A model generated the notes under the pieces. It searched no databases, was not told the origin of the DNA, and saw nothing but the letters and a program-made list of their open reading frames with translations. The translations under genes were made by a program, and so were the position numbers. A DNA stretch of 64,000 nt from an uncultured Desulfospira sp. (GTDB lineage Bacteria > Desulfobacterota > Desulfobacteria > Desulfobacterales > Desulfobacteraceae): the NCBI GenBank assembly GCA_963663165.1, contig OY760175.1, positions 704,001-768,000 on the forward strand. Direction: 5' to 3'. Positions 7,048 through 33,080 of this stretch are shown here, one piece after another (the first letter of the stretch is position 1; each line of letters starts with the position of its first letter).

Positions 7048-7228
7048 TTGTTCAGGTGCATTTCACGCATGCTTTAACCATAAAGCATAGGGAATCCGGT
7101 TAAATTCCGGAACGGGCCCGCCGCTGTAGTTGGGGACGAACCCTGCAAACTGCCACTGTTGAAACGAATTTCGGCGGGAAGGCGCAGTCAGTAGAATGAT
7201 CCAATAGTCAGAAGACCTGCCTTAACAA
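7048..7228 (+). promoter_or_regulatory. Cobalamin riboswitch 1 (upstream of the corrinoid salvage operon)
   Basis: AGGTGC, ATAGGGAATCCGGTTAAATTCCGG, GCCCGCCGCTGT, GCCACTG...GGGAAGGC and B12-box AGTCAGAAGACCTGCC; P1 TTGTTCAGG/CCTTAACAA. Confidence 0.95.
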
Positions 7229-7285
7229 ATTTGGCCTTTCCTTGTGGTAAAGGAGGGTCAATACATTTTCGGATATAAATTAGGG

Positions 7286-7329
7286 ATGCTCCGAATCAGT
7301 AACACGCTGGTTCGGGGCATTTTATTTTT
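7286..7329 (+). terminator. Attenuator terminator of riboswitch 1
   Basis: ATGCTCCGAATCAG/CTGGTTCGGGGCAT hairpin plus T-rich tail, between the aptamer and the first start codon. Confidence 0.75.
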
Positions 7330-7367
7330 AAGCTGTTAGCCTTTAGCTAACCGATCAAGGACGGCAT

Positions 7368-9437
7368 ATGAAAAATCAAATTGGCAAGTTTGGGTGGGGT
7401 AATCCGAAAAATCAAAAAAATCATCCGGTATTGTTGACAGTGCTGGTTCTGGTGAGCCTGGTGCTGGTGTTGCCGGCATGCGGCAACAAGCCGGTGGAGG
7501 TCAAGGACAGCATCGGCAATCTGGTCCGGTTTGAATCGACCCCCTGCCGGGTGGTGTCCCTGGTGCCCACGGCCACCGAGATTTTATTTGAAATCGGCGC
7601 TTCCAGGGCCGTTGCAGGGCTGACATACCATGACAGCACCTTAAAAGGGGCTGAAAAAAAGGCCGTGGTGGGCGGCTTCATGTATCCATCCGTTGAAAAA
7701 ATCAAGGCCTTAAATCCGGATCTGGTGATCCTGGCCGATTTTCATACTCAGATCAAAGCCAAACTTGAATCCACCGGTTGCCGGTTTTTTGTTTATAAAA
7801 CCTTGAGCCTGGATCATGGGTTTGAGAATATGCTCACCTTTGGCCAGATATTTCAAAAACAAGGGGCAGCCGCCCGGGTTGTCCAAAAGAATAAAGACCA
7901 GTTGGCCTTAATTGAAAAAAAGCTGTCAAAGGCCGTGCCTGAAAAGAAAAAACGGGTCATGCGCCTCATGGGCCGGGATATGATCATGACACCGGGAAAC
8001 GATTCTTTTCAAAACCAGATGATCCGGATGGCCGGCGGGCTGCCGCCTGATTTAAATGAGCCCGGCAGTGTGGTCGCCGTGAGTCTTGAACAGTGGCAGC
8101 AATTTAACCCCGAGGTGGTTTACGGCTGCGGTGAAGACCGCAAGGCGGCCGATCTTTTTTTCTCCCAGGAGGGATGGAAGGATGTGGATGCCGTTAAAAA
8201 CCACCAGATCTTTTATTTTCCCTGTGAATTGACCTGCCGGGCCGGCACCCATGTGGGGGATTTTGTCTCCTGGCTGTCGTCCATGATTTATACTCAAGAA
8301 TTCTCCCGCCCGGAGAATCATGTTCTTGAGCAGCAGATTATTGGATCTTATCCCGTGGATGTTGACCTTGACTATGTGGTCTCGGCGGTCGTCAACAAAA
8401 CCCGGATTTATGATTTTGAAAACAAAACCTTGATGATTGAGTTTAAACGGCCCCAGACCATTGTTTCCACCCTGGAGGGCCAGCGAACCGGGATCATGTC
8501 CGTGGGAAACCACTATTCACCGCCTGCCACCTGGGGACCGGGACACCATCTTGGGATTTTGGCCATTCGTGAGGGCATCCTAAAGGCCAACCGGAAAGAA
8601 GCCCAAACCACCTCTTTTTTGATTACCGGCGCCGACATGGGCAACCTAAGCGTTCAGACCAAACGGTTTAAGGACATGAAGGTAACGGCCCTGGCAACGG
8701 CCGGGGTCATGTCCAATGCTGTGAGAATGTCCCAGGATACCGGGATGTATTATGAACCCGGCACCATTAACATTATCATCATGGCCAATATGGGCCTTTC
8801 GCCGAGGGCCATGACCCGGGCGATCATTTCTGCCACTGAAGCCAAGACCGCTGTTTTAGAAGACCTTGATATCCGCAGCACCTACACGCCACAGCGCCAC
8901 AGGGCCACCGGCACCGGCACCGACAATGTCCTGGTGGTAGCGGGAGAAGGCCCCCCCATTGACAATACCGGCGGCCATTCCAAAATGGGAGAGCTCATTG
9001 CCAAAGCGGTTTACGATGCGGTAAAAGAGGCCATCTATAACCAGAATAAGGTCACCGAAAACCGCCACATATTTCAGCGGCTCAAAGAAAGACACCTGTC
9101 CGTATACACCCTTACCGGCGAGATCACCTGTGAGTGCATGGCCCAGAAAGGCATTGAAATAAATGAATTTTCCCAACAGGTGGACCACCTGTTGCTCGAA
9201 CCTGAATATGCGGCCTTTCTTGAGGCGGCCTTTGCCTTAAGCGATAATTACGAACGGGGCCTGATCAAGGATTTAACCCGGTTTGACCAGTGGTGCCTTG
9301 CCACCGCGTCAAGGATTGCGGGAAAACCCGTTGACGCCCTTGAGAACCTGGTAACCAGCGACACGGTTCCTTTAGTCATTCAATCGGCCCTGAATTCGAT
9401 TTTCACCGGAACCATGGAAAAAATGAGCCATGAATAA
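7368..9437 (+). CDS. Fusion of a BtuF-like corrinoid-binding domain and a CbiZ adenosylcobinamide amidohydrolase domain; lipoprotein
   Basis: Lipobox LPAC; helical-backbone SBP motifs RVVSLVPTATEILFEIGA and EKIKALNPDLVI; CbiZ motifs TAGVMSNA, GTINIII, ATEAKT, ATGTGTD. Confidence 0.85.
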   Translation: MKNQIGKFGWGNPKNQKNHPVLLTVLVLVSLVLVLPACGNKPVEVKDSIGNLVRFESTPCRVVSLVPTATEILFEIGASRAVAGLTYHDSTLKGAEKKAVVGGFMYPSVEKIKALNPDLVILADFHTQIKAKLESTGCRFFVYKTLSLDHGFENMLTFGQIFQKQGAAARVVQKNKDQLALIEKKLSKAVPEKKKRVMRLMGRDMIMTPGNDSFQNQMIRMAGGLPPDLNEPGSVVAVSLEQWQQFNPEVVYGCGEDRKAADLFFSQEGWKDVDAVKNHQIFYFPCELTCRAGTHVGDFVSWLSSMIYTQEFSRPENHVLEQQIIGSYPVDVDLDYVVSAVVNKTRIYDFENKTLMIEFKRPQTIVSTLEGQRTGIMSVGNHYSPPATWGPGHHLGILAIREGILKANRKEAQTTSFLITGADMGNLSVQTKRFKDMKVTALATAGVMSNAVRMSQDTGMYYEPGTINIIIMANMGLSPRAMTRAIISATEAKTAVLEDLDIRSTYTPQRHRATGTGTDNVLVVAGEGPPIDNTGGHSKMGELIAKAVYDAVKEAIYNQNKVTENRHIFQRLKERHLSVYTLTGEITCECMAQKGIEINEFSQQVDHLLLEPEYAAFLEAAFALSDNYERGLIKDLTRFDQWCLATASRIAGKPVDALENLVTSDTVPLVIQSALNSIFTGTMEKMSHE

Positions 9438-10308
9438 AATTTTTTCACGCCTGATCTGGGTATCCGCTTTCATGATTTTGGGGCTTTCCGGACAGGGCAG
9501 GGCAGACCAGGCCATACCCCGGCGGGTGATCTCACTTTCTCCCATTATCACGGAAACCATCTACCTTGTGGGGGCCCAAGACCGGCTCATTGCCAACACC
9601 ACCTATTGCAATTCCCCGCCTGAGGCCCAATTAAAAGACAAAATCGGTACCGTGACCCAGATGAACATCGAAAAGGTTATCCGGCTGAACCCGGACCTGG
9701 TCATTGCCAGTGCCCTGACCCAGGAAAAACAGCTCAAAGTTTTGGAAAGTCGGTTCATTCCCATCTTCAGGGCAGAAAACCCCAAAACCTTTGAACAGAT
9801 GTGTGACATGACCCTGGCCATGGGAAAACGGCTTGGAAAGGCCGAACAGGCCCATGCCATTATCGAAAAAACCCGAAAGAATGCCGCCTGCATCAACGCC
9901 CTGACCCAACATCTTGAAAAACCCAGGGTATTCATGCAGATCGGTTTAAAGCCCTTATACTCAGCCAACAAAGATATGTTCATAAACGAATATATCCGGT
10001 ATACTGGCGGCAGAAACATTGCTGAAAACGAGGCGTCCGGGATTTACAGCCGGGAAAAGGTGTTGGCCCAGGACCCTGAAATTATTCTGATTGCCACCAT
10101 GGGAAGCTCAAAAAAAGCCGGCGAAATGGAAAAGCAGCGGTGGATGGCTTTTAAAAGCATTTCCGCGATAAAATCCGGCCGGATCTATATTCTGGACCCT
10201 GAATTGATATGCAGTCCCACGCCGGTTACTTTTGTTAAGGGGATCATAGAAATTCTGCCGTTGATTCACCCGGATGCAGACCTTTCTGCCGGAGGGTGTA
10301 CCCCATAA
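9430..10308 (+). CDS. btuF: Corrinoid ABC transporter substrate-binding protein
   Basis: Signal peptide, RVISLSPIITETIYLVGA, EKVIRLNPDLVI; under the B12 riboswitch. Confidence 0.82.
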   Translation: MNKIFSRLIWVSAFMILGLSGQGRADQAIPRRVISLSPIITETIYLVGAQDRLIANTTYCNSPPEAQLKDKIGTVTQMNIEKVIRLNPDLVIASALTQEKQLKVLESRFIPIFRAENPKTFEQMCDMTLAMGKRLGKAEQAHAIIEKTRKNAACINALTQHLEKPRVFMQIGLKPLYSANKDMFINEYIRYTGGRNIAENEASGIYSREKVLAQDPEIILIATMGSSKKAGEMEKQRWMAFKSISAIKSGRIYILDPELICSPTPVTFVKGIIEILPLIHPDADLSAGGCTP

Positions 10309-11315
10309 TGAGCCCAAGGATCAGACAATGGGCATTCATTACGGCCGGCCTTTTTATTTTTATGCTGGTCTCCGGCCTGATCGCCCTTTGCACGGGCAGT
10401 GCCGGCATCGACATCGGCCGCATTCCCGACATCCTGCTCCACGGGAAAGGATCTGCCGATTACAGCATTTTAATGAATATCCGCCTTCCCCGGATCATTT
10501 TGGGAATGGCCGTTGGCGGTTCTTTGAGCCTGGCCGGGGCCCTGCTGCAGGGCATGTTCAGAAATCCCCTGGTGGAGCCTTATACCTTGGGGATTTCCGG
10601 CGGGGCCTCCTTAGGGGTCTGTGTCAATATCCTGTTTAAATTTTATGCGGTAATCGGGATTGCCGCCTACCCCCTGTCCGGATTTTTAGGGGCCAGCCTG
10701 GTCATCTTTCTGGTCTACAGTTTGAACCGGCAAAACCGGAATATCCGGTCCAACCGGATGCTCTTAACCGGGGTCATGATCTCCTATGTGGCCTCATCCC
10801 TTGTCATGCTGCTCATGGCCCTGTCCCACAGCGACGAACTTCAAAACATCGTGCTGTGGATCATGGGCTCACTGGATGAACCTAACCTGACGTTGATCCG
10901 GATTGCGGCCATTGGGTCCGTTGCCGGCCTTCTGATCTCTTATCTGTTCTGCATGGACCTGAACGCCCTTTTGCTCGGGGATGAAGAAGCCGCAGGCCTT
11001 GGCATCAACACCGTCAAAACCAAAAAAATCCTGTTTGTCACGGCCTCTTTCTTAACGGGCTTAAGTGTGGCCGTGGCCGGCATTATTATGTTCGTGGGGC
11101 TGATTGTCCCTCATTTTATCCGGCTGATCACCGGGCCGGATCACCGGATTTTATTGATCGGCTCATTTCTGGCCGGGGCCGCCTTTTTAACCTTATGTGA
11201 TGTGGTGGCCCGGACCATTATAGCCCCCCTAGAACTGCCCGTGGGCGTGATTACCGGCATTATCGGCGGGATTATCTTTATCTGGGCCCTTTCCAGGAAA
11301 AAGGTGATCCTGTGA
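10308..11315 (+). CDS. btuC: Corrinoid ABC transporter permease (FecCD family)
   Basis: RLPRII, QGMFRNPLVEPYTLGISGGA, FVGLIVPH, ELPVGVIT. Confidence 0.85.
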   Translation: MSPRIRQWAFITAGLFIFMLVSGLIALCTGSAGIDIGRIPDILLHGKGSADYSILMNIRLPRIILGMAVGGSLSLAGALLQGMFRNPLVEPYTLGISGGASLGVCVNILFKFYAVIGIAAYPLSGFLGASLVIFLVYSLNRQNRNIRSNRMLLTGVMISYVASSLVMLLMALSHSDELQNIVLWIMGSLDEPNLTLIRIAAIGSVAGLLISYLFCMDLNALLLGDEEAAGLGINTVKTKKILFVTASFLTGLSVAVAGIIMFVGLIVPHFIRLITGPDHRILLIGSFLAGAAFLTLCDVVARTIIAPLELPVGVITGIIGGIIFIWALSRKKVIL

Positions 11316-12115
11316 TTCCGGTACTTGAAATAAGACATCTGAACCTTTCCTATAAAGATACCCCCATTCTCAAGGATATCTGCCTCAAAGTTCAGCAGGG
11401 GGAATTTCTGGCTGTGGTGGGGCCGAACGGGTGCGGGAAAACCACCCTGGTGAAAGCCATCCTAAGGTCCATTACGCCAGGGGCAGGGCAGATCCGGTTT
11501 AAGGGAAACGATATCACGGCCCTGTCCGGCAAAGCCCTGGCAAAGGGCATGGCATCGGTTCTCCAGACCATTGATCCGGCGGCCATGACCGTCAAGGAAT
11601 ACGTGCTGCTGGGACGGCTCCCCTATTTTTCGCCCTACCAGTTTTTTGAAACCCGGAAAGACATGGACATTGCCTTAAAATACATGGAACTGACCGGCAC
11701 CGCCCATCTGTGTGATGCCCGGATCAATGAAATCAGCGGGGGAGAACGGCAACTGGCCGCCATTGCCAGGGCCCTGACCCAGGAGCCCTCCCTGATCATC
11801 ATGGACGAACCCACGTCTAATCTGGACATCACCCACCAGGTCCGGGTCCTGGATTTGATGACCGACCTTAAAGAGGATTTGGGCGTGACCATTTTCATGG
11901 TCCTCCATGACCTGAACCTGGCTGGGGAATATGCGGACCGGCTGGTACTTTTAGACAAGAACGGCGGCTGTGTTTACGGCTCAGGCCGTCCCCTGGATGT
12001 GCTGACCGAAGAGGCCATTGAGTCGGTTTACCAGACCAAGGTCACCGTGGCCCCCAACCCGGTCACCCGAAACCCCTTTGTATTTATCGTAAAAAAAGGA
12101 AACACCCATGACTGA
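11312..12115 (+). CDS. btuD: Corrinoid ABC transporter ATPase
   Basis: Walker A GPNGCGKT, ISGGERQ, MDEPTSNLD, LHDLNLA. Confidence 0.85.
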   Translation: MIPVLEIRHLNLSYKDTPILKDICLKVQQGEFLAVVGPNGCGKTTLVKAILRSITPGAGQIRFKGNDITALSGKALAKGMASVLQTIDPAAMTVKEYVLLGRLPYFSPYQFFETRKDMDIALKYMELTGTAHLCDARINEISGGERQLAAIARALTQEPSLIIMDEPTSNLDITHQVRVLDLMTDLKEDLGVTIFMVLHDLNLAGEYADRLVLLDKNGGCVYGSGRPLDVLTEEAIESVYQTKVTVAPNPVTRNPFVFIVKKGNTHD

Positions 12116-12899
12116 CAAACGAGAAGATATCCCTGTGGTCCTGACGGCATTCGGTACAACGGCCAAAGCCTTTGCCACCTACGAAAAAATGGACCGGGTA
12201 TTCAAAGAGACCCTGCCGGACACTCAGATTCACTGGGCTTATTCATCCAGGGTGGTCAAACGGGCCATGCAAAAAAACCATCAACTGGACCTCAAAGATC
12301 CATTAGAAACCCTTCAAATTCTGGCCGATCAGGGCCACACCTGGGCGGTCATGCAGTCCCTGCACCTGGTCTGCGGCCATGAATTTCACCGCCTGATCGT
12401 GGCCCCGCACCATGCCGGTATCACCGGAATCCGGTTTGCCGCCGGCCTGCCGCTGCTTACGGCCCACGATGATTTTGAAAAAACGGCCCAGGCCCTTTCC
12501 CCTATCGTGCCCCAGGACCCTGACCAGGCCCTGGTGCTGGTGGGCCACGGCACGGATCATCCGTCCTGGACCAGCTATCCCGCCTTGGAGACGTTTATGC
12601 GGCGAATATACGGTCCCCGGGTCTTTGTGGGAACCGTGGAATGGTACCCGGGACTTGATCATACCCTTGAGCGGATTATGGCAGCCGGATTCAAGAAGGT
12701 CACCCTGGTCCCCTTTCTTCTAGTGGCCGGGGTCCATTTTAAGGAAGACCTTACCAGGGAAGAGGATTCCTGGCAGAAAACCCTGGAGCGCAACGGGATT
12801 GAGGTTACCCTGGTGGATCAGGGGGTAGGCCAGCTGGACGGCATTACCCGGATTTTCTGTGACCATATTGCAGAGGCTGTAGACGTCATTCCCTTGTAA
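12108..12899 (+). CDS. cbiK: Anaerobic sirohydrochlorin cobaltochelatase (cytoplasmic type)
   Basis: VLTAFGT, GHGTDHP, PFLLVAGVHFKED; no signal peptide. Confidence 0.88.
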   Translation: MTDKREDIPVVLTAFGTTAKAFATYEKMDRVFKETLPDTQIHWAYSSRVVKRAMQKNHQLDLKDPLETLQILADQGHTWAVMQSLHLVCGHEFHRLIVAPHHAGITGIRFAAGLPLLTAHDDFEKTAQALSPIVPQDPDQALVLVGHGTDHPSWTSYPALETFMRRIYGPRVFVGTVEWYPGLDHTLERIMAAGFKKVTLVPFLLVAGVHFKEDLTREEDSWQKTLERNGIEVTLVDQGVGQLDGITRIFCDHIAEAVDVIPL

Positions 12900-12900
12900 A

Positions 12901-12999: not shown

Positions 13000-13788
13000 T
13001 CAATAAGCCGTACGGCTTGTTTTTCTAAACCGGGAGGGGGTAATCCCTTCGTGTTTCCTAAAGCATCGGGCAAAATAAGAGGCATCATTAAACCCCACGG
13101 AAAAACAGGCCTGGGAAATGTTTACGTCCGGAATTTTTAACAGCCGCTTGGCCGCTTCCACCCGTTTGATGTTCAGATACTCCTTAAAGGTCTGCCCTGT
13201 GGCCTGCCTGAAAAGGCGGCTGAAATGGAACCGGCTCAGGCCTGACAGCTCTGCGGCATCGTCAAGGCGAATGTTTTCCATATAATGGGTATCAATAAAG
13301 GCTATGCATTTTTTCAGACGGCGGTCATCGGTGTTAAAGCTCATTGGACCTGAAAAATTGATCAGGGAACGGGTGGAAAATCGCCTTAAATGTTCGATGA
13401 ATAGGGACTGATAATACCGTTTAAGCCGGCTGTTATCCAAAAGGATTTTTCCAAATTTTTCCCTTGATATGGTCAGGCACTCCACCGGTCCTGAGGAAAT
13501 GGCGTCATAAAACGACACGCCTCGTCCAAAAAAAGCCTCTACCCCGAAAAATTCCCCTTTTTCCAAGCTTCCCCTTAAAGTGGTACGGCTGTTTTCTGCG
13601 GGGGCATAAACGTCGATAACGCCGTCAAGGATGTATCCTAAGCAGTCCGGTGTTTCATTTCTTTGAGCAATCATGGTGTAGGGCTCAATCAGGGTGAAAT
13701 CAAATTCGGTTTTAATCAGTTGTGTTAATTCAAAATCGCTAATGCTGTTAAACAGCAGCTCTCCTTTAGTTTGTTCTAAAATTTTCAT
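13000..13788 (-). CDS. AraC-family regulator with an N-terminal cNMP-binding-like domain (paralogue 1)
   Basis: GYILDGVIDV...GEFFG cNMP-fold pattern; C-terminal double HTH (LSRFHFSRLF...VGFNDASYFARCFRK). Start codon uncertain. Confidence 0.88.
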   Translation of the reverse strand: MKILEQTKGELLFNSISDFELTQLIKTEFDFTLIEPYTMIAQRNETPDCLGYILDGVIDVYAPAENSRTTLRGSLEKGEFFGVEAFFGRGVSFYDAISSGPVECLTISREKFGKILLDNSRLKRYYQSLFIEHLRRFSTRSLINFSGPMSFNTDDRRLKKCIAFIDTHYMENIRLDDAAELSGLSRFHFSRLFRQATGQTFKEYLNIKRVEAAKRLLKIPDVNISQACFSVGFNDASYFARCFRKHEGITPSRFRKTSRTAY

Positions 13789-13803: not shown

Positions 13804-13846
13804 AAAAAAACAAAAAAATCCGAACAAGCAGGCTTGTCCGGATTTC
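13804..13846 (-). terminator. Attenuator terminator of riboswitch 2
   Basis: Minus-strand AATCCGGACAAG/CTTGTTCGGATT hairpin followed by TTTTTGTTTTTTT. Confidence 0.72.
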
Positions 13847-13899
13847 CGTTTTTAATCCTTTATTTGGTTAACGCGCCCTTACCCTGGGTACGCCAATTC

Positions 13900-14064
13900 A
13901 TACAGGCTGGTCTTCTGGCTCTCGGATCATCTTACTGGCTGAGCCTTCCCGCCTTCTTACGGCAGTGGCATAGATACAGCGGTCATCCCCGATTACAGCG
14001 GCGGGTCCGTCATTGAGTTTCACAATGTTCCCATTATCCCGGCACGGGCCGGGTACCTGTAATC
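13900..14064 (-). promoter_or_regulatory. Cobalamin riboswitch 2 (upstream of AraC paralogue 1)
   Basis: Minus strand: ACAGGT, AATGGGAACATTGTGAAACTCAATG, ACCCGCCGCTGTAA, GCCACTG...GGGAAGGC, AGCCAGAAGACCAGCCTG. Confidence 0.93.
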
Positions 14065-14077
14065 CTTATTTGTCTGG

Positions 14078-15632: not shown

Positions 15633-16286
15633 TCAATTAACATCTTCAGGTTTAAAGGTCTTCCCGCCGGTTACCCGGCCCCCAACAACAAGGGAGACCC
15701 GGACTTTCGGGGCGTCCGGGAACTGGGTAAAATATTCAGATGCAATTTTTTGCATGGTCTGTGCCACTCCCTCGGGATGATATCCTTTGGCTGAGGTGGT
15801 AAACGCCACATAGCCAAAAAGTTTTTGATTGGCCTCAATGCCGGCCTCGGGTAGAAATTTGGTTTCCACCCGGACCCGGGTGGCGTCGGTGTGGCTTAGT
15901 ACCCGGTCTTGAAAATGGGCAATGGTGTCTTCAATTTGTATTTTTAGATCCTCTGTTTCATTTAAAGCGTTCGTTTTTAAGTTATTTTTTGTGACTTCCT
16001 TTATGTCTGTTATGGCCGTATTTTGGCTGATCGGTGGTTTTTTTTCTGTAACGGATGCCTCTGGTTTGGTTTCTTTTTTCATAGATTCGGTGTGCGGTGG
16101 GATTTGATCATTTTCCATGGCGGTTAAAACCTTATCATTTCGGTTTTCCGGCAAATGGAAGCTGGGTGAGCTGAACCATAAGGTACTCAGAATCGCCAAA
16201 CCTGCTATTACTACAAGAATTAAACTAAAAAGCCTTGGTTTGTTTTTAAAAATTTTTACCTCGTTCAAAAGGCTTATGTTTTTCAT
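15633..16286 (-). CDS. Hypothetical membrane-anchored protein
   Basis: SD-like AGGTGG before ATG 16286; one N-terminal hydrophobic helix, a charged linker and a globular C-terminus. Confidence 0.65.
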   Translation of the reverse strand: MKNISLLNEVKIFKNKPRLFSLILVVIAGLAILSTLWFSSPSFHLPENRNDKVLTAMENDQIPPHTESMKKETKPEASVTEKKPPISQNTAITDIKEVTKNNLKTNALNETEDLKIQIEDTIAHFQDRVLSHTDATRVRVETKFLPEAGIEANQKLFGYVAFTTSAKGYHPEGVAQTMQKIASEYFTQFPDAPKVRVSLVVGGRVTGGKTFKPEDVN

Positions 16287-16460
16287 AATTGTGTCCACCT
16301 TCAAATATTTCGCACGGCGACATTCTATGTAATGCAATAATGCAATAAAAAGCTCATGATAGTAACTGCCTATAGTTGCAGGCAGGACCGTCACACCAAA
16401 AAATTCTGGAAACCGTTTTTCACATAAAAAAAAGACTTTGTCTTGAAAAAGATGCCCCAA

Positions 16461-16494: not shown

Positions 16495-16520
16495 CAATAT
16501 CAATCTGTAAACAATCTTGT

Positions 16521-23494: not shown

Positions 23495-23497
23495 GGG

Positions 23498-24850: not shown

Positions 24851-24871
24851 TTTAAAAAAATCCCTAATTTT

Positions 24872-24948
24872 TTAGCATTTAGCTATTAGCCGTTAGCGGT
24901 TAGCCGGCAGAACTTTCCCTTATAGGCTAACAGCTAAAAGCTAATAGC
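24872..24948. repeat. Palindromic heptamer repeat, TTAGCnn family (inside the tad operon)
   Basis: TTAGCAT TTAGCTA TTAGCCG TTAGCGG TTAGCCG ... GGCTAA CAGCTAA AAGCTAA TAGCT. Confidence 0.8.
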
Positions 24949-24952
24949 TCTT

Positions 24953-26116: not shown

Positions 26117-26132
26117 GTGGTTATGCCTCCCC

Positions 26133-27647
26133 TTATTCCTCGAACCCGGACGGGCCGGCAAACACCGGTCTGATTTCAGGATTGTCCGGCTTGTTTTTCC
26201 AGATATGGTCCAGAAAGAAAAACTCAAAATCATCCTGTTCAAATACCTCGGTATCCCCGGGAAGGGGCGGGATTTCCCCCGGGTTCATGGGCTTGACCAG
26301 CCGGGGGGTAATCATGATGACCAGTTCGGTTTCTTCCTTGATATACTCTTTGGTTCTGAATGCCGCCCCCACAACGGGCAGATCACCGAGCAAAGGGACT
26401 TTATTGACCGTTGAGCTGATGTTTTCCATGAGAAGGCCGGCAATGGCAAAGGTCTGGCCGTCCTTGAGCATGAGGGTGCTTTCGGCCTCCCGGGTGGTGA
26501 CCCCCGGAACCGTGGCGCCGCCGGAGGTGACCGATGTGGAATAATCCACATCACTGACCCTGGTTTCCACGGTTAAATGGATGGTGTCTTTGGCGATCAC
26601 CGTGGGGCAGAAGGTCAGCTCCACGCCGTATTCCTGATTGCTGACGGTCACACTGCCGTCACTGCCGGAGACAGGAATGGGAAATGATCCCCCCACCAGG
26701 AAACTGGCTTCCTGACCGCTCATGGCCACCAGAGTAGGGCGGGCCTTGACTGTTGCAAGCCCCTGGCTTTTGAGCAGGCTTAAAATCCCGGAAACATCAT
26801 CACTGAGCAAGGTAAATGCCAGTTGGAATGCATTGGCAAAAGGGGTTGCCATGGTAAATTCGGATGTGCTGTCAATACTGATATCGCTGGCGCCCACTGT
26901 TCCGGAAGCATAGTCTTCAATGGTAGACGACTGAGAAGTACCAGAGCTTTTAGAAGTTCCGCTCCAGGTCATGCTCGGTCCGTCCGCCCCGGGGGGCACC
27001 AGGCCGATCCCCAGTTCACTGCCGCTGGAATATCCAAAGATGTTAAGCCCATACCGCTTAATGGCAGACTTGGACACCTCCACAATCTTGGCTTCCAGCT
27101 GAACCTGCTGGGAGCCGGTCACCGTCATCATGTTTTTGATGCTTTCAGGGCTGGCAAAGGCTTCCAGGACCCCGAGCACCCGCTCCATGGTCCTTGTATC
27201 CTCCAGACGGCCGGATACCATAAGCATGCCAAAGGCGCTTTCCACAGTTACCGTTGCCTCGGGGACCAGGGCAGCCAGTTGCCGTTTGATTTCAAAGGTA
27301 TCGTACTTGACGCTGACATGATACACCTGGGTCGACCCGTCCTCATACCATAAAATCAGGTTGGTGGAACCCACACTGGTGGCATTGATCAGGATTTTAT
27401 TCTGGCTTAAGGCCCTGACATCGGCGGTTTCAGGTTTGCCCACAATCACCCGGGAAACGCTGTCCCGGGTATCCAGAACAAAGGACATGCCGGCGGTCAA
27501 TTCCAGACGCTGTGCATCTTTCATGGTCACGCCGTCCAGAACCGGTTCGGCAACCCCTGCCGCCGGAAAACTTAACAAGAACAGCCCGGTACAAAAAAAC
27601 AGCCAAACCGGGCCTGACAAAAACCAATTGTATTTCTTAGGGGTCAT
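26133..27647 (-). CDS. cpaC: Tad secretin CpaC/RcpA
   Basis: N-domain GSTNLILW, QQVQLEAKIVEVS, SGQEASFLVGGSFPIP, KVPLLGDLPVVGAAFR, ETELVIMITPRLV. Confidence 0.95.
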   Translation of the reverse strand: MTPKKYNWFLSGPVWLFFCTGLFLLSFPAAGVAEPVLDGVTMKDAQRLELTAGMSFVLDTRDSVSRVIVGKPETADVRALSQNKILINATSVGSTNLILWYEDGSTQVYHVSVKYDTFEIKRQLAALVPEATVTVESAFGMLMVSGRLEDTRTMERVLGVLEAFASPESIKNMMTVTGSQQVQLEAKIVEVSKSAIKRYGLNIFGYSSGSELGIGLVPPGADGPSMTWSGTSKSSGTSQSSTIEDYASGTVGASDISIDSTSEFTMATPFANAFQLAFTLLSDDVSGILSLLKSQGLATVKARPTLVAMSGQEASFLVGGSFPIPVSGSDGSVTVSNQEYGVELTFCPTVIAKDTIHLTVETRVSDVDYSTSVTSGGATVPGVTTREAESTLMLKDGQTFAIAGLLMENISSTVNKVPLLGDLPVVGAAFRTKEYIKEETELVIMITPRLVKPMNPGEIPPLPGDTEVFEQDDFEFFFLDHIWKNKPDNPEIRPVFAGPSGFEE

Positions 27648-27672: not shown

Positions 27673-28092
27673 TCAGCGGGCATTATAAAGGGAGTTTGAG
27701 GCAGAGGAATTCAGGCCCCTGATCACATCGACCTCCAGTGAGGGCCAGTCCGGCTGCACCACCCGGATTTCCAGAAAGTCTTTGGTTCCGTCTTCGTACC
27801 AGACAATGCACATGGTCGATCCCATTTTCCGGCCGTCAATGACCATTTCATAGGGAGAAATCACCTTGACTTCGGCTATTTCCGTATCATTGATGGAGAT
27901 TATTTTAACCGGGCTTGGCCTTTGGGGGCGAAGCATCTTGATAAAATAAGGACGGGAGTGTTTTTCAGGCACATAAATGGTGGTTGCGGCCAGGGACCGG
28001 CTTTGTCCGGCCCAGGCCGTTGCGCTTATGGTGAAAAGAACAAGAATACCGGCTAACAACAGGTACCCCATGCTCAGCCTGTGGTGTTTCAT
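27673..28092 (-). CDS. Secreted stand-alone pilus-secretin N-terminal-like domain protein
   Basis: Signal peptide; IAEVKVISPYEMVIDGRKMGSTMCIVWYEDG parallels the CpaC N-domain TADVRALSQNKILINATSVGSTNLILWYEDG. Confidence 0.75.
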   Translation of the reverse strand: MKHHRLSMGYLLLAGILVLFTISATAWAGQSRSLAATTIYVPEKHSRPYFIKMLRPQRPSPVKIISINDTEIAEVKVISPYEMVIDGRKMGSTMCIVWYEDGTKDFLEIRVVQPDWPSLEVDVIRGLNSSASNSLYNAR

Positions 28093-28117
28093 GGATGATT
28101 CTCCTGCAAATGGCCCA

Positions 28118-29488
28118 TTAAAAGGCCTCCTTATTGTACCGTTTGGTTTCCTTTTTCATGCCCGGTGTAAACACGGTGATGTCATGATAAGGGGAACTTT
28201 CCTTATAAAATACCCGGCTGCTTTTTTCCCCGCCGGTCTCAACAATATGGTCATCGCCCAGTTTTCTGACGATCAATTTGACATGGTCTGACGTATGGGA
28301 AATCACGGCCAGTTTTTCCGCCTGTTCCGGGGATACCACCAGGGTCACCCGTTTGGTGGACCAGGCGGATGCCCAGGAACCTTCTTCCCACCGGTTTTCC
28401 GGGGCTTGTTCTTTTGTTTCTTTGGCCGGGTCCGGCATATCCTCCCGGGTTGCCAAAGGGGCTCTGATTTCACTGGAAAGCTGGGTATCCTCTTCCACAA
28501 AAAGAATTTCAAGGTTCTGCATCAAAATCTTGGAAACGGTGAATTCGCCGGTCACCATGGCATCGGCTCCCGGCACATTCCGGCCCTGCAAAGCGGTTCC
28601 CTTAAAATCGTGGGTGGCCATTAAATCCACCCGCTGGCCGGGCCGCAGAAAACCGCAGATGCCGTCTTCATCATTGACACGGATGGTAATGGCCCGTTTG
28701 CCCACAGCAATTTTTGACTGGAGTCTTTCGTTGACCTCATCGGCCATTTGTGACAGTTCCTGCCGGGTTTTGGCCCCCAATTGTGCCGAATAAATAACCG
28801 GCTCGCCAACGGCGTTGTTGTCGTCCCGGCTGTCCCTTCTGACCAGCGTCAAAGCGGCATTCTGGGCGGCCGACAGGATACAGGCCTCATTTCTGGTCAA
28901 CACCAGGGCCACCCCCTGATTTGTTTTCCGGCTGCCTTTGGCCCACAGGGACTCTTCTTTCCCATCAGGCTTTGAACCATCGGTATCATGCACCCTGACC
29001 CCGGACAGAATAATCCGGGAGATCCGCCGGCCGTTTTTTGAGCCAAGAGAGCCTGAGGCGATGACATCGACTTTGTCTCCGGGTTCAAGCAGTCCATTGA
29101 GTGCGGCATCCGGCGTGATGCTGATGCGGACCACACACATCCCGGGGGCTATCCCGTCTTCTACGGGCTCCGGGGCCTTGACGAAATCGGGTTTTAAACG
29201 GTTCTGATGAATGGGCTCTCCTAAGTTAAACCCTTTGGCTGCGATCCGCCCTTCAACCGTTGATATGTTGGTGAAAAGCCCTTTGGGAATGACAGGCGAG
29301 GTCCAGGTGATCCGTTTTAGATTAAGGGATGTGAGCGTTTCTCCCGCCTTTATCTGAGTGGCGGCCACCACGACCCGGCGTTTTGGGGCAGGCTTTTTAA
29401 CCATAAACCGGGATGCCAGGTTGGCGGCCAGAAATGCCACCGCCAGTGTACCGACGATTATCAATATGCCTTGTTTTTTAATCAACAA
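28118..29488 (-). CDS. cpaB: CpaB/RcpC paralogue 2 (SAF plus two RcpC domains)
   Basis: VVVAATQIKAGETL SAF domain; two G(L/F)LxPGxxVD motifs (GLLEPGDKVDV, GFLRPGQRVDL). Confidence 0.85.
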   Translation of the reverse strand: MLIKKQGILIIVGTLAVAFLAANLASRFMVKKPAPKRRVVVAATQIKAGETLTSLNLKRITWTSPVIPKGLFTNISTVEGRIAAKGFNLGEPIHQNRLKPDFVKAPEPVEDGIAPGMCVVRISITPDAALNGLLEPGDKVDVIASGSLGSKNGRRISRIILSGVRVHDTDGSKPDGKEESLWAKGSRKTNQGVALVLTRNEACILSAAQNAALTLVRRDSRDDNNAVGEPVIYSAQLGAKTRQELSQMADEVNERLQSKIAVGKRAITIRVNDEDGICGFLRPGQRVDLMATHDFKGTALQGRNVPGADAMVTGEFTVSKILMQNLEILFVEEDTQLSSEIRAPLATREDMPDPAKETKEQAPENRWEEGSWASAWSTKRVTLVVSPEQAEKLAVISHTSDHVKLIVRKLGDDHIVETGGEKSSRVFYKESSPYHDITVFTPGMKKETKRYNKEAF

Positions 29489-30910
29489 TCAGTTCTCCTG
29501 AGTACGATAGGTCTTTGAGGGGGCAGATCCGGTTTTCTGATGGGGCAGCAGATGGTTGGGCTCTGGTTTTTCAGGCAGAAAATCTTCCTGGTCAAAGGTC
29601 ATTCCCCATTCTTTTGATCCGTAATAATACTCTACCGTGTAGTACTGTTTGTCTTTCCAGAACATGTCTGTGAGCTTTTCCCCTCTGGTGTGTACAATGC
29701 CCTGATCTTTTGAGTTTCTGACGATCAATTTAATGTACTGGCTGTTGTAAATGGTAACGAGTTTTTCAGCCACATCCGGAGAAACCAGAAAAGTAACCTG
29801 GCCGATGACACTGCCTTTTTTGGAACCGGCCTGCCGGCTGATTTTTGACCCACCGGCATTGCCGGTGCCCATGGCCGCTTTTTTGTCACTTGAACCGGGC
29901 ATGTCCGATTCCGGTGTCCCGGTGAGAGACTGCACCTCTAAAATTTCAAGGTTCTGCAGGATGATCCGTGCCGTTTTGGATGTATTCAACAAGGTGGCCT
30001 TGGCACCGGGCTGGTCTCCCTGGGATGAAATGTTGCCGGCAAAACTGATGCCCATGACATCCACCCGGTTGCCCGGGCGCAGAAAACCGCAGATACCGTC
30101 GTCATCTTTAAAGCTTAAGGTCATGGCCCGGCGGCCCTTATCCATTCTCAGGTCCCAGCCCTGAATCCTTTCCTGGTCTTTTTGGGCAATGCCGGACCGG
30201 GTGTCGGGACCGTTTTCAAGGGAAAACACCACCGCATCAAGTTCCGGGGCAGGGCGGCCGCCGGTTGGCGTCAGCCTGGACAGGGTTAAGGGGCTTGACC
30301 GGAACAGGGCCAGAATGCGGGCCTGTTCCGGATTAAGGTTAAAGGTGACAATGATTTTTGAGGCCCGGCTTGATTTTCCGGTGCTTTGGGGTGTTCCCAC
30401 GTCCATGACCGTTACACTGGACAGGATGCATCGGGCAACCTGCCGGGTATTTCCCTGGCTCAAAGAATCCTTGGCAATCACATCCACTAGGTCGCCGGGC
30501 TTAAGCATTCCGGCAAGTCCTGAAACGGGATCAACTTCAAGGCTTGCGATCCTCATCCCGGTATCGGACGGGCCAAGCCACTCAATGGGCTCGGGCGTTG
30601 TGGGGGTGCCCGGGGCGCTGAGCCGGGAACCGGTTATGGGCTCTCCGGTGTAAATGTATTCGTTGGCCACACGGCCTTCAAGATCCTTAAGGCCATCAAA
30701 GGTATCTTTGGGCCGGGCCGATTCCGGCCATTGTTGAAGCTGCATATGATGGGCTTCGATCCGGGTGCCGGCCGGGATATCCCGGGCCGCAACAACCAGC
30801 TTAACGTGACGGCCTGACGGCCCTTTGCTCTGCCGGGTTAACAGATTCCCGGCAAGGGCGGCCACGGCCACGGCAGCAATGATGATCACAATGCCACGCA
30901 CTTTAATCAC
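29489..30910 (-). CDS. cpaB: CpaB/RcpC paralogue 1 (SAF plus two RcpC domains)
   Basis: LVVAARDIPAGTRI SAF domain; GMLKPGDLVDV and GFLRPGNRVDV. Confidence 0.85.
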   Translation of the reverse strand: MIKVRGIVIIIAAVAVAALAGNLLTRQSKGPSGRHVKLVVAARDIPAGTRIEAHHMQLQQWPESARPKDTFDGLKDLEGRVANEYIYTGEPITGSRLSAPGTPTTPEPIEWLGPSDTGMRIASLEVDPVSGLAGMLKPGDLVDVIAKDSLSQGNTRQVARCILSSVTVMDVGTPQSTGKSSRASKIIVTFNLNPEQARILALFRSSPLTLSRLTPTGGRPAPELDAVVFSLENGPDTRSGIAQKDQERIQGWDLRMDKGRRAMTLSFKDDDGICGFLRPGNRVDVMGISFAGNISSQGDQPGAKATLLNTSKTARIILQNLEILEVQSLTGTPESDMPGSSDKKAAMGTGNAGGSKISRQAGSKKGSVIGQVTFLVSPDVAEKLVTIYNSQYIKLIVRNSKDQGIVHTRGEKLTDMFWKDKQYYTVEYYYGSKEWGMTFDQEDFLPEKPEPNHLLPHQKTGSAPSKTYRTQEN

Positions 30911-30969
30911 AGCCGGATCCTTTTTTGTTTTGTATGATCAAATTTGCCTTCATTTTAGGGTTTCCCTGT

Positions 30970-31380
30970 TCACGGATACACCGCCACCGATGTGGAAGAA
31001 ACGCGAGACGGTATCATGCCCGCCGGGAAATAGCCGGTCAGTGACTGGTATGGGAAATTGGCCAACTCAAGTTTTGCCCGGTCCGGATCTGACAATTGGT
31101 CAATGCAAAGGTAGGGTTCAAGGGTCGCGGCATCGACTTCCCCGTCCAGGGCCTGAACCATTGCCGACACCGCAATATCTTTGGGGCTTTCATAGCCGCT
31201 TTCCTTGACCACGGCCCTGGTGGCGCAGGCCAGGGCATTGTCCAATGCAATTTTGGTCTTAAAAAACCAGCCGTACTCCACGATGCCCAGAAGAAAGGTC
31301 ATCAGCAGGGGCAATACCAGTGCAAACTCAATGGCGGAAACCCCTTTTTCACATGTCAGCCTGATGTTCATTTTTTTCAT
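30970..31380 (-). CDS. TadE-like pseudopilin
   Basis: G|VSAIEFALVLPLLMTFLLGIVEYG. Confidence 0.9.
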   Translation of the reverse strand: MKKMNIRLTCEKGVSAIEFALVLPLLMTFLLGIVEYGWFFKTKIALDNALACATRAVVKESGYESPKDIAVSAMVQALDGEVDAATLEPYLCIDQLSDPDRAKLELANFPYQSLTGYFPAGMIPSRVSSTSVAVYP

Positions 31381-31450
31381 TTTTCTTTAAACGGTTAAGG
31401 GCGTTAATTCATATGGCCTTTCATTCTTGTGTCATTTCCCGCCGGGTCCT

Positions 31451-31903
31451 TTAAGGAAAGGAAAAAACCGCCCGGCTGTGAAGCCTTTTGGGCACAAAGG
31501 CTTGGGGAAGAAACCCGACCAGCGGGGTATAGGCATAGTTTTCAATGGTGACAATAATCCGTCTGGGAAGGGGAGGCCCCTGGTCCTCGCCGGCGGCCTG
31601 GATCTCAACATCAATGTTGTCATCAGACAGGGTCCCAATGATATCAAAAGTGTCCTTGACCGAATCTCTGGCCCTGGACTCAATTTCGCCGGGGGGTTCA
31701 TCGGGCATCCGGAGCGCCGTCCGTGCCCCCTTTGCCACGGCATGGGAGAGCAGAATCTGGGAGGTCATGACCCACCCATATTCGATAATCCCCATGAAAA
31801 TGGCAAAAAAGAACGGCATGACCAGGGCAAACTCCACCGCGGAGGTTCCCCCCTCGTTTTTGCCCCTGACACCGGATTTTGAATATGGCCAATGCCTAAT
31901 CAT
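31451..31903 (-). CDS. TadE-like pseudopilin
   Basis: G|TSAVEFALVMPFFFAIFMGIIEYG...AVAKGARTA. Confidence 0.9.
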   Translation of the reverse strand: MIRHWPYSKSGVRGKNEGGTSAVEFALVMPFFFAIFMGIIEYGWVMTSQILLSHAVAKGARTALRMPDEPPGEIESRARDSVKDTFDIIGTLSDDNIDVEIQAAGEDQGPPLPRRIIVTIENYAYTPLVGFLPQAFVPKRLHSRAVFSFP

Positions 31904-31926
31904 ATCGTCAGCCGTGAAACATCAGG

Positions 31927-32433
31927 TTAAATCACCGGCCCTGCCGTCAAATAACAGCAGAACCCCATCGCCATAGCGGCGGCATAGGGGACCCCCCGGC
32001 GTTTAAGTTGGCCGGGCAGGGTCTTAAGCAAGGTGGACGGAAACCATAAAATATTGACCGTCTGCCAGGGGCCTGAAGCCGTTACAATCAGAATCAGGGC
32101 CCAGATTCCCCCGGCAATGGAGCCGTAAAGGAACAGGTTGACCACACCGGAAACGCCCAAAAAACTGCCTGAAGCCGCCAGCAGTTTCACATCTCCGCCG
32201 CCGGCATACCGCAGCAGAAAGGGGATCATCAGCAATAATAACCCGGTTCCCATTCCTTTAAACGCGTACAGGCAGCCCCATTCCAGACCGCTGGTTGCGG
32301 CATGGTATCCCAAGCCTGCCAGACAGGCCGGAACAGTCAAATAATTGGGAATCCGCCGGAATCTTAAATCAAAGACAGCGGATATCCCGAATAAGAGGCT
32401 GCACATCAAAATGGCCGGCATCGGTTGCATCAT
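31927..32433 (-). CDS. cpaA: Prepilin peptidase (A24), CpaA/TadV
   Basis: DLRFRRIPNYL and GGGDVKL catalytic Asp motifs, VPYAAAM. Confidence 0.92.
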   Translation of the reverse strand: MMQPMPAILMCSLLFGISAVFDLRFRRIPNYLTVPACLAGLGYHAATSGLEWGCLYAFKGMGTGLLLLMIPFLLRYAGGGDVKLLAASGSFLGVSGVVNLFLYGSIAGGIWALILIVTASGPWQTVNILWFPSTLLKTLPGQLKRRGVPYAAAMAMGFCCYLTAGPVI

Positions 32434-32462
32434 TTGGCTTTCGTATCCCCCCGCACAGAAGG

Positions 32463-32651
32463 CTATGGTTCCTCGGTGGTGTCTTCCCCGTTCAGGCCGT
32501 CAACGATTTCCTGGAATTTGTCATTAATGGTCTCTCCTAAGGTTGAGACAACCGTAACAATAGCCAGGGCAATGCCGGCGGCCATTAATGCATATTCCAC
32601 TGCTGATATCCCTGAATCATCTTTCCATAACTCTTTTAATCTTTGAATCAT
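32463..32651 (-). CDS. flp: Flp major pilin
   Basis: Flp motif G|ISAVEYALM followed by a hydrophobic helix; SD AAAGGAG. Confidence 0.95.
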   Translation of the reverse strand: MIQRLKELWKDDSGISAVEYALMAAGIALAIVTVVSTLGETINDKFQEIVDGLNGEDTTEEP

Positions 32652-32782
32652 GATGCTCCTTTGGTGTTCTGTCGGCTTCTTTTACCGGGTCTTTCCCTTG
32701 GGGCCCGCCCTAGTAACGGTCTCTTTACAGCCCTGAAAATAAAGGCCTGCTGGCGGTTAAGTTCAGGGGCTTGGGATGGGCC

Positions 32783-32823
32783 AAAAAAAAATCCCAGACC
32801 AAAATACTGCTTTGATCTGGGAT
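32783..32823 (-). terminator. Attenuator terminator of riboswitch 4
   Basis: Minus-strand ATCCCAGATCAAA/TTTGGTCTGGGAT hairpin followed by a run of T, located between the aptamer and flp. Confidence 0.8.
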
Positions 32824-32893
32824 GTCCCCTTTTTATCCGCAAATTCTTTATGTGACCTGTATCCTATGAAGCCGCAAGAATACATTGTCTGAT

Positions 32894-33080
32894 CAAACGG
32901 GCAGGTCTTCTGACTTCCCTCCCTTCATGCGGCCTTCCCATCCCAAGATTCTGGTGGAACAGTGGCACAATAAATTGCTGAAGAGTTCCTGTTAAAATAA
33001 CAGGCAAGGGTCACAGCAGCGGGCCTGTCTTCGATTTTCACGAAGTTCCCTATTAAGCTTAATTTGCAAGCACCCATTCG
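32894..33080 (-). promoter_or_regulatory. Cobalamin riboswitch 4 (upstream of the flp/tad operon)
   Basis: Minus strand: GGGTGC, TAATAGGGAACTTCGTGAAAATCGAAG, GGCCCGCTGCTGTGA, GCCACTG...GGGAAGGC, AGTCAGAAGACCTGCCC; TTGACT at 33109-33114 upstream. Confidence 0.94.

Follow-up and report, generated by a model that had tools for sequence, protein, structure and literature searches.

Four clustered cobalamin riboswitches accompany corrinoid salvage genes, two AraC-type regulators and a Flp/Tad pilus operon in a Desulfospira genome

We analyzed a 64,000-nucleotide stretch of DNA (hereafter the window) from an uncultured Desulfospira species, corresponding to C1:704001-768000 of a 6.74-Mb genome that consists of one contig (G000). 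Within 26 kb of the window, four cobalamin riboswitch aptamers lead four different transcription units: a corrinoid salvage operon, two genes for AraC-type regulators and a Flp/Tad pilus operon. The genes for a TadG-like protein and a set of putative surface proteins are enclosed between the regulators. Aptamers were called in the window with the Rfam model RF00174 (gathering score 31.5 bits) and protein domains with Pfam and NCBIfam. The island comprises five transcription units, of which the four with riboswitch leaders are laid out as follows.

7037-7238, plus strand: aptamer 1, leader of the btu operon (RF00174, 99.0 bits, E 1.6e-23)
7283-7323, plus strand: intrinsic terminator forming the expression platform of aptamer 1 (stem of 18 pairs, then a T run; folding free energy dG -25.1 kcal/mol)
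7368-9437, plus strand: fusion of a BtuF-like binding protein and the adenosylcobinamide amidohydrolase CbiZ (Peripla_BP_2 E 2.8e-26, CbiZ E 6.8e-51)
9430-10308, plus strand: second BtuF-like periplasmic binding protein (Peripla_BP_2 E 1.1e-29)
10296-11315, plus strand: BtuC-type permease (Pfam FecCD E 3.4e-91)
11312-12115, plus strand: BtuD-type ATPase of the ATP-binding cassette (ABC) kind (Pfam ABC_tran E 1.1e-29)
12108-12899, plus strand: CbiK cobaltochelatase (Pfam CbiK E 2.1e-54)
13000-13788, minus strand: regulator 1, 262 aa, cNMP-binding-like domain and AraC helix-turn-helix (HTH) (cNMP_binding E 2.3e-12, HTH_18 E 3.7e-24)
13814-13847, minus strand: intrinsic terminator, platform of aptamer 2 (15-pair stem followed by a T run, dG -18.5 kcal/mol)
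13888-14075, minus strand: aptamer 2, leader of regulator 1 (RF00174, 110.2 bits)
14106-14078, minus strand: promoter-like TTGACA-17-TATGGT ahead of aptamer 2
18997-19842, minus strand: regulator 2, cNMP-binding-like domain and AraC HTH (HTH_18 E 8.6e-25, cNMP_binding E 3.4e-4)
19946-20174, minus strand: aptamer 3, leader of regulator 2 (RF00174, 98.4 bits)
20274-21526, minus strand: end of the tad operon, with a tetratricopeptide repeat (TPR) protein (TadD-like; Pfam TPR families) and a 99-aa acidic lipoprotein
21631-27647, minus strand: RcpA-type secretin, TadZ/CpaE, TadA ATPase, TadB and TadC
27673-32433, minus strand: TadV prepilin peptidase, two TadE pseudopilins, two RcpC/CpaB proteins and a small pilus-N-domain protein
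32463-32651, minus strand: Flp pilin, first gene of the flp-tad unit (Flp_Fap E 3.7e-16; G/ISAVEY processing motif)
32791-32823, minus strand: intrinsic terminator, platform of aptamer 4 (14-pair stem followed by T9, dG -18.6 kcal/mol)
32883-33092, minus strand: aptamer 4, leader of flp-tad (RF00174, 84.6 bits)

The first-pass annotation, made without database searches, had put four cobalamin aptamers at 7048, 13900, 19956 and 32894. All four pass the covariance model, those positions falling about 11 nt inside the matches, and each match covers the full model span of 1-189. The claim that each aptamer sits in the leader of a different unit (btuF-cbiZ/btuFCD/cbiK, the two regulators and flp-tad) is likewise borne out. 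The terminators lie 45-60 nt past aptamers 1, 2 and 4 and before the first gene, and these three are the strongest among the four longest-stemmed terminator-like sites found between 6.8 and 35 kb. Cobalamin riboswitches usually target B12 synthesis, B12 uptake or B12-independent isoenzymes, and in nearly all of them the bound corrinoid favors the OFF state, that is, the terminator. The whole genome contains eight RF00174 matches, half of them inside these 26 kb; in a simulation, the chance of four of eight random points falling within 26 kb was about 1e-5. The other four precede a corrin methylase gene, two TonB-dependent receptors, a ThiC-like radical-SAM gene and a Glycos_transf_3 gene. Besides the four cobalamin aptamers, the only Rfam matches in the window are two tRNAs, and no cyclic di-GMP (c-di-GMP) aptamer reaches the Rfam gathering score there.

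The btu operon contains all the parts required for a BtuFCD importer with CbiZ: two Peripla_BP_2 proteins, FecCD, ABC_tran and the CbiZ domain, which scores 173 bits in Pfam within the fusion protein. The second BtuF matches the NCBIfam BtuF equivalog with E 1.9e-29 and 102.7 bits, under the 234 cut-off. Outer-membrane receptors are encoded elsewhere in the genome, which has 31 Plug-domain matches, and two TonB-dependent receptor genes directly follow a riboswitch at 3.198 Mb. The idea that the Tad secretin substitutes for a missing BtuB was rejected given these Plug-domain matches and riboswitch-gated receptors.

The two regulators are paralogues with 26% identity. Their HTH_18 domains score 85-87 bits against a cut-off of 33.6, and both have the double HTH typical of the C terminus in AraC/XylS proteins. 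The best NCBIfam match of the HTH is PocR, with 89-90 bits against a cut-off of 500; the match is confined to the HTH region and stays under the equivalog level. For regulator 1, the ATG at 13788 lies past the terminator, while the TTG start in the mechanical gene list (13827) is inside it.

The pilus gene set is complete by Pfam, counting the TadG gene that lies between the regulators. Its assignment rests on Peptidase_A24 (E 2.5e-16), TadE twice, RcpC twice and T2SS-T3SS_pil_N for the genes at 27673-32433, and on Secretin (E 1.5e-45), AAA_31/ParA, T2SSE (E 4.2e-64) and T2SSF twice for those at 21631-27647, the TadZ protein being an AAA_31/ParA protein with a receiver-like N terminus. The Pfam-called span from Flp through the TPR protein is 32651-20570 on the minus strand. 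Homologues of the 99-aa lipoprotein also close the tad operons of G317, G271, G326, G105 and G463. A 64-aa open reading frame (ORF) of the mechanical list at 32648-32842 (minus strand) overlaps the terminator of aptamer 4, belongs to no family and is unlikely to be a gene. Immediately upstream of the flp promoter, at 33222-34694 on the minus strand, lie genes for a sigma-54 activator lacking a receiver domain and for a separate single-domain response regulator, a pair that is kept in two congeneric genomes, G001 and G002. A role of this activator as the PEP-CTERM-box regulator was ruled out by the NCBIfam cut-off (285 against 502.6 bits).

To follow the arrangement in other genomes, we built a covariance model of our own (R1), trained on 31 riboswitches of Desulfobacterales. 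R1 recovered all four G001 riboswitches that had been left out of training as well as all 21 Rfam cobalamin riboswitches on the loci scanned with both models, its E-values being rough. Genes in relatives were defined by a longest-ORF rule and tblastn. The genome sets are samples in which kin are not independent: a relatives set of 31 genomes with G000 among them, an order sample of 400 other genomes and a class sample of 400. Searching with regulator 1 (E <= 1e-25), we found homologues in 23 other genomes, 14 from the order sample and 8 from the class sample plus G018. In 20 of the 23, a cobalamin riboswitch is located directly upstream on the same strand (R1, Rfam), and full-length homologues of regulator 1 are placed after riboswitches in other genera too. 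When AraC leaders from across these genomes were folded, 11 of 17 contained a hairpin with dG <= -17.8 kcal/mol followed by a T run.

The tad operon adjoins the riboswitch-regulator pair in 12 of the 20 genomes, representing 10 genera (G001, G011, G018, G065, G105, G161, G231, G271, G317, G427, G532 and G463), with the regulator upstream on the same strand, divergent or convergent; the remaining eight are mostly contigs of 3-12 kb. The first-pass annotation had staked its proposal on the tad-btu linkage recurring in at least one other genome, and linkage of tad to the riboswitches was found in these 12. In most genera, tad has no riboswitch nearby other than that of the regulator. The full adjacency is patchy, being present in 6 of the 400 genomes of the order sample. 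All 31 genomes of the relatives set carry cobalamin riboswitches, and a close TadA was found in five of them, G000 included; in G006, a more distant tad locus has no riboswitch within 17.5 kb. TadA was found at E <= 1e-80 in 65 of the 400 genomes of the order sample. Among the ten genomes with the best-scoring TadA, seven have the regulator beside tad and three are contigs of 3.5-5.8 kb with tad genes only, while five next-tier tad loci of 20 kb each contain neither riboswitch nor regulator. R1 found a cobalamin riboswitch in none of the 80 TadA loci listed from species genomes of many phyla, a control set totaling about 1.36 Mb in which some loci end at contig ends. These controls indicate that the association is a property of a single TadA subclade rather than of Tad pili at large.

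The composition of the module, that is, the riboswitch-regulator pair with its tad and neighboring genes, varies among relatives. A second species of the genus, G001, has the same four-riboswitch island with about 90% DNA identity; between the regulators it carries a longer and different stretch with a DUF4465 protein, two TSP3/dockerin-type proteins, a peptidyl-prolyl isomerase and a DUF1573-like protein. In G011, a member of another genus, a single strand carries the riboswitch, the regulator, flp and the tad operon, after which come TadG, DUF1573 and a homologue of the propeller-dockerin protein described below, and then a c-di-GMP-I riboswitch before a DUF4465 protein. In a third genus, the riboswitch-regulator pair of G018 diverges from flp-tad and similar cargo follows with a c-di-GMP-I-GGC riboswitch, a riboswitch-gated BtuB and a BtuF operon lying 16 kb away. 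The module thus adjoins B12 transport genes in G000, G001 and G018. In a third species of the original genus, G002, we found no TadA and no regulator homologue at E <= 1e-15; there, the syntenic slot from the btu operon to the sigma-54 genes contains two riboswitch-gated TonB-dependent receptors, a third receptor gene, a second BtuF-CbiZ and a CobN cluster, making the slot a variable corrinoid-acquisition hub in the genus.

DUF4465 genes are found in the module of G001, G011, G040, G065 and G076 and are absent from the window. The G001 module protein matches the solved structure of D5EK51 (9hmu) with E 4.1e-23. The Bacteroides proteins BtuJ1 and BtuJ2 belong to DUF4465, a family whose genes frequently neighbor those of B12 transporters; experiments have shown B12 binding for eight divergent members (PMC13398666). 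The presence of the family in the modules of five relatives speaks for a link to corrinoid capture. Riboswitches of the c-di-GMP-I class occur in the module of four genomes, G011, G018, G040 and G463. G040 has, in sequence, a cobalamin riboswitch, the regulator, a second cobalamin riboswitch, a c-di-GMP-I-GGC riboswitch and DUF4465, the tandem lying at L119 1635-2023, and in G463 the tandem is reversed, with the c-di-GMP-I-GGC before the cobalamin riboswitch and both after the regulator (L184 9315-9718). By their sequences, the two tandems appear to be further cases of the rare logic gate combining adenosylcobalamin (AdoCbl) and c-di-GMP.

Several observations on the relatives stand apart from this pattern. 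Type II secretion genes, unlike in the window, adjoin the riboswitch-regulator pair in G011, G018, G427 and G532 (L011 18916-19873, L012 9613-16560, L182 10809-11231 and L183 6986-7432); they encode a GspG-type pseudopilin and, in G018, also GspE, GspD, GspC and GspM. The same G018 genome has ten or more riboswitches packed between 3.23 and 3.57 Mb. On an 8.9-kb contig of G467 (L187), five matches to the cobalamin riboswitch surround a set of genes made up of a short AraC gene of the HTH-only type, a radical-SAM/SPASM gene, and cobQ (CobQ-type amidase), cbiC and corrin methylase genes. G076 contains a decayed copy of the module (L138), in which stop codons break the regulator; a pair of identical DDE transposase genes and one for a reverse transcriptase (Pfam RVT_1) flank it, and DUF4465 fragments occur close by.

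The genes enclosed between the two regulators of the window are the following.

14142-15587, minus strand: TadG-like protein (Pfam Tad E 1.3e-8, Tad_C E 6e-4)
15633-16289, minus strand: membrane-anchored protein, 218 aa from an internal Met, preceding TadG in a unit without a riboswitch
16467-16495, minus strand: terminator after the cohesin-like gene (12-pair stem, 9 GC pairs)
16521-17144, minus strand: cohesin-like protein, 207 aa, with a putative VPLPA/PEP-CTERM sorting tail
17182-18699, minus strand: secreted six-bladed beta-propeller with C-terminal TSP3/dockerin calcium-binding repeats (Dockerin_1 E 8.8e-7)

Of the proteins that the first-pass annotation had named here, TadG and the dockerin are real by the Pfam Tad and Dockerin_1 models. 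The Dockerin_1 module scores 29.5 bits against a cut-off of 22.9 over residues 466-512, with a TSP_3 repeat before it; the gene begins about 300 nt after regulator 2, with which it and the cohesin-like gene are assigned to one unit, and homologues of the protein are found in the module of six genomes besides G000. An AlphaFold2 (AF2) model with a mean predicted local distance difference test (pLDDT) score of 87.9 shows six blades and then the calcium-binding repeats. Structural matches of the propeller, with Z of 21-24, are generic (paraoxonase, PQQ dehydrogenases and sialidases; Foldseek, VIA-align), and nothing on function follows from them. We also considered a BtuG-like function and did not retain it, as only generic six-bladed propellers were matched and no B12-binding protein stood out. 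About 25 full-length homologues of the propeller-dockerin protein were found among 5.8 billion clustered proteins, none of them functionally named. The C-terminal part of TadG gives weak language-model leads (0.86-0.90) to the DUF7305/pAdhesive_15 clusters. The 218-aa membrane protein has a homologue in the G290 module and matches no Pfam or NCBIfam family, its language-model scores being under 0.9.

The claimed cohesin stands by fold and family and not by its own sequence, which scores 14.1 bits against the Pfam Cohesin cut-off of 24.1 (E 0.054). The AF2 model of the 207-aa protein (pLDDT 91.8) has a cohesin beta-sandwich fold, and nearly all of the listed Foldseek matches in the PDB are cohesins, as is each of roughly the top 30 (best E 1.6e-6, target TM scores 0.56-0.68). 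Its family has 57 representatives; among the 38 aligned, Cohesin was found in 16 (best E 3.6e-7) and PEP-CTERM in 21. The tail of the window protein reads VPVPAG...GLRRYNK and scores 24.0 bits with TIGR03370 (VPLPA-CTERM), against a cut-off of 25.35. Prediction of the cohesin-dockerin complex gave a score of 0.32, the best of three controls scoring 0.02, which supports the pairing weakly; similar complexes have been solved, and the prediction may draw on memory of them. Between prediction runs the contact agreement was at least 0% and the partner pLDDT at least 56. The mark used for such predictions is reached by 116 of 157 solved complexes and by 2 of 215 mismatched pairs, and scores of 0.60 or less comprise 18 of the 157 solved complexes together with both passing mismatches.

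Upstream of flp we found a direct-repeat box with 21-bp phasing, approximately ~GCAAANAAATCC-N9-GCAAANAAATCC, in G000, G001, G018, G231 and G011, which represent four genera. In G000, the first half alone is intact and lies upstream of the promoter preceding aptamer 4, which places the riboswitch between a conserved flp promoter and flp in this genus. Genome-wide, the box has 10 matches in G000, compared with 1-3 in shuffled sequences, and 5 of the 10 precede the DUF4465 gene and four VPLPA/PEP-CTERM gene clusters, one of them with a dockerin protein. The box also precedes the DUF4465 gene of G001, the c-di-GMP riboswitch of the G018 cargo and a riboswitch-gated receptor in G002. The sites are these.

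33164-33176, minus strand: half-site of the box upstream of the flp promoter, the only exact match in the window
G000 C1 3160371, 2864290, 3626302, 4581872 and 2830315: box sites elsewhere in the genome
L010 2206-2237; L013 16308-16340; L153 5379-5411: box sites in other loci

Two assignments of the box were tried and dropped. Binding by the regulators is not supported, as G002 has the box without a regulator homologue, and a sigma-54 reading was abandoned because the GG-GC spacing is 14 and not 12.

The edges of the island and its spacers contain repeats and signs of mobility. A palindromic GGGACTTGGGA-type element occupies 6828-6978, between an enoyl-CoA hydratase gene and aptamer 1; it has dozens of matches in G001 at 75-97% identity and resembles a repetitive extragenic palindrome (REP) or a miniature inverted-repeat transposable element (MITE). 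Two further short repeats, each with many copies in G001, lie at 21534-21633 (between the TPR gene and tadC) and at about 38935-39423 (intergenic). At the left edge of the island, in 3660-5749, are a pair of tRNA genes together with genes for a Uma2-family protein and a tyrosine integrase. In G001, an int-alpA RNA match is found at this edge (L009 600-679), and the left flank maps 3.8 Mb away. The tRNAs, the integrase and the displaced flank suggest that the region was once mobile or rearranged.

Judged by its sequence and its recurrence in other genomes, the block is a real, conserved regulon under cobalamin riboswitches. As to what the regulon does, we favor, with confidence evenly balanced between belief and doubt, a response to scarcity of corrinoids in which salvage is coupled with a program of pilus and surface proteins for acquiring external corrinoids. 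Bound corrinoid would favor the terminators, and a fall of the corrinoid pool would let the four units be transcribed together. The two riboswitch-gated regulators would drive or co-drive the surface program, as their conserved neighborhood suggests; this would consist of the Tad pilus with TadG, the propeller-dockerin protein and the PEP-CTERM-anchored cohesin-like protein, to which the relatives would add DUF4465 B12-binding proteins with a PEP-CTERM anchor. In the genus with an aptamer before flp, the pilus would depend on low B12 twice, via the regulator and in cis. The binding proteins would be kept on the surface or in the matrix while the pilus fixes the cell to corrinoid-supplying particles or neighbors, and the corrinoids caught would then be imported and remodeled by BtuB, BtuFCD and CbiZ. 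The c-di-GMP riboswitches of the relatives may serve as an added "sessile state" input. A bolder version makes the Tad pilus of this subclade a dedicated corrinoid-harvesting organelle built only at low B12: the pilus, TadG and a cohesin-dockerin scaffold with PEP-CTERM anchors would hold B12 binders (DUF4465, perhaps the propeller) out from the cell, and pilus dynamics or attachment would deliver bound corrinoid, or a producer neighbor, to the outer-membrane receptor, with the regulators acting as master switches. This version we regard as unlikely; were it true that the pilus itself harvests corrinoids, it would be new in kind.

A number of findings weigh against a shortage-induced acquisition regulon. 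Three of the 23 regulator homologues have no upstream riboswitch: G151 has none, G326 has none although its AraC-flp-tad arrangement is intact, and the sole match in G322 scores 29.9 bits and is not upstream of the regulator. A terminator was looked for in the leader of aptamer 3 and none was recognized, and read-through of all four units at a low corrinoid pool, both in its OFF logic and in the co-induction, is something we infer. The surface proteins of the window have no known B12-binding domain in Pfam or NCBIfam. The single DUF4465 gene of G000, which has a PEP-CTERM-type tail, is at 3.159 Mb, 2.4 Mb off, and no riboswitch was found within its 1.5-kb flanks. G002 has three box matches and yet no regulator homologue. 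The genome encodes CbiD, CbiC and CobS, from which the organism is probably a corrinoid producer; with riboswitch-gated TonB receptors elsewhere, scavenging by a pilus is not obviously needed. Finally, the patchy distribution would also fit co-transfer of neighboring genes without a shared function. The first-pass annotation had gone further and called the block a single B12-starvation-induced machine for capturing corrinoids. Its aptamers, the linkage and DUF4465 in five relatives uphold that proposal in part; the lack of a known B12-binding domain in the window proteins, the probable producer status, the distant DUF4465 gene and G326 without its riboswitch count against the rest.

The chief competing explanation takes B12 as a lifestyle cue, low corrinoid signaling nutritional or community state and the riboswitches gating a general program of attachment or aggregation whose pilus-side proteins handle no corrinoid. 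Links to sessile life are established for Tad pili, for PEP-CTERM proteins and for c-di-GMP riboswitches, the last of which occur in the module of the four genomes named above; the box is common to many VPLPA/PEP-CTERM genes without a visible B12 tie, and the probable producer status and a window cargo free of B12-binding domains also speak for this explanation. It accounts less well for the DUF4465 genes in five modules, which in G040 stand under a cobalamin riboswitch of their own, for the B12 transport genes beside the module in three genomes and for the B12 receptors that fill the same slot in G002, and on balance we consider it somewhat unlikely.

If the regulators were instead PocR-like and served B12 metabolism only, the tad operon would be a passenger on a mobile or variable island and the riboswitch before flp a local acquisition of little consequence. 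The short HTH-only versions that follow riboswitches among B12 synthesis genes in G467 fit this idea, as do the PocR match of the HTH (90 against 500 bits, a resemblance only), the start of the island at two tRNA genes and an integrase and the displacement of its left flank in G001. However, in two species of the genus a full-scoring aptamer with a terminator of its own separates flp from its promoter, the pattern is confined to the regulator-linked TadA subclade, and the regulator stands beside tad in 10 genera in several gene orders, which makes hitch-hiking hard to uphold; we judge the passenger explanation distinctly unlikely. Highly improbable, in our estimate, is that the Tad apparatus exports the dockerin and PEP-CTERM proteins or lyses neighbors to free their corrinoids under starvation, in the manner of Kil, the Tad-like system with which Myxococcus lyses its neighbors. 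In favor are the secretin and the duplicated RcpC of the machine, the constant adjacency of secreted cargo genes and the type II secretion genes beside the riboswitch-regulator pair in four genomes, but the module showed no domain of a lytic enzyme or a toxin, and the ordinary signal peptides and sorting tails predicted on the cargo point to Sec and exosortase routes.

The corrinoid-shortage regulon would thus join known sensors and known machines in a conserved and undescribed wiring. The first-pass annotation had claimed that no described system has this composition, and our literature search agrees: in the literature searched, we found no description of a cobalamin riboswitch arranged with a Flp/Tad pilus or with an AraC-type regulator. 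A full aptamer and terminator before a pilus operon is unusual, as is a conserved aptamer and terminator before a transcription factor; the latter is a rare natural case of a riboswitch in cis upstream of a protein regulator and would extend the reach of a small-molecule sensor to a surface-structure program. The company of DUF4465, PEP-CTERM and c-di-GMP suggests how anaerobic sediment bacteria may compete for or share corrinoids in aggregates, a matter on which most work to date comes from gut Bacteroides.

Each part of the arrangement has a known counterpart. B12 riboswitches act through regulators in the AspocR/PocR circuit of Listeria and in EutX/Rli55, known from both Enterococcus and Listeria. 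By means of trans-acting RNAs, the aptamer there governs how much regulator (EutV or, in Listeria, the AraC-family protein PocR) is present or active, and B12 status is likewise relayed by a regulator to a wider gene set. There, the device is an antisense or sponge RNA, whereas here the aptamer is in cis in the leader of the regulator mRNA and comes with a terminator; the regulators here have a cNMP-binding-like domain, and their neighbors are pilus and surface genes, not pdu or eut. With the Flp/Tad (Cpa) systems of Aggregatibacter and Caulobacter the operon shares the full gene set and differs in the cobalamin riboswitch of the flp leader, the adjoining riboswitch-gated AraC regulator, the duplicated RcpC and the conserved 99-aa acidic lipoprotein at the operon end. 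The cohesin-like fold of the 207-aa protein and the Dockerin_1 module of its neighbor resemble those of cellulosomes, but the setting here is diderm and without glycoside hydrolases, and the cohesin has a putative PEP-CTERM tail and falls under the Pfam Cohesin cut-off.

In Desulfobacca acetoxidans, AdoCbl OFF and c-di-GMP-I ON aptamers occur in series, each AdoCbl aptamer with a terminator of its own, and Sherlock et al. (2022, PMC9481103) raised, as speculation, a connection of B12 with pili. The tandems of G040 and G463 are of the same kind, while the window has no c-di-GMP aptamer at the Rfam gathering score; the available portion of that paper describes no controlled genes, regulator, tad operon or B12-binding protein (PMC9481103). 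The btu loci of Bacteroides thetaiotaomicron have cobalamin riboswitches that at low B12 induce extra surface corrinoid binders (BtuG, BtuH and BtuJ1/J2) beside BtuB and BtuFCD (PMC13398666). The same DUF4465 fold occurs in the modules of the relatives studied here, whereas the window itself has no DUF4465 and matches no BtuG-type Pfam family. Where the Bacteroides proteins have lipoprotein signals, VPLPA/PEP-CTERM tails would provide the anchors here; the switch would work partly via riboswitch-gated transcription factors, and the set includes a Tad operon together with cohesin-like and dockerin proteins.

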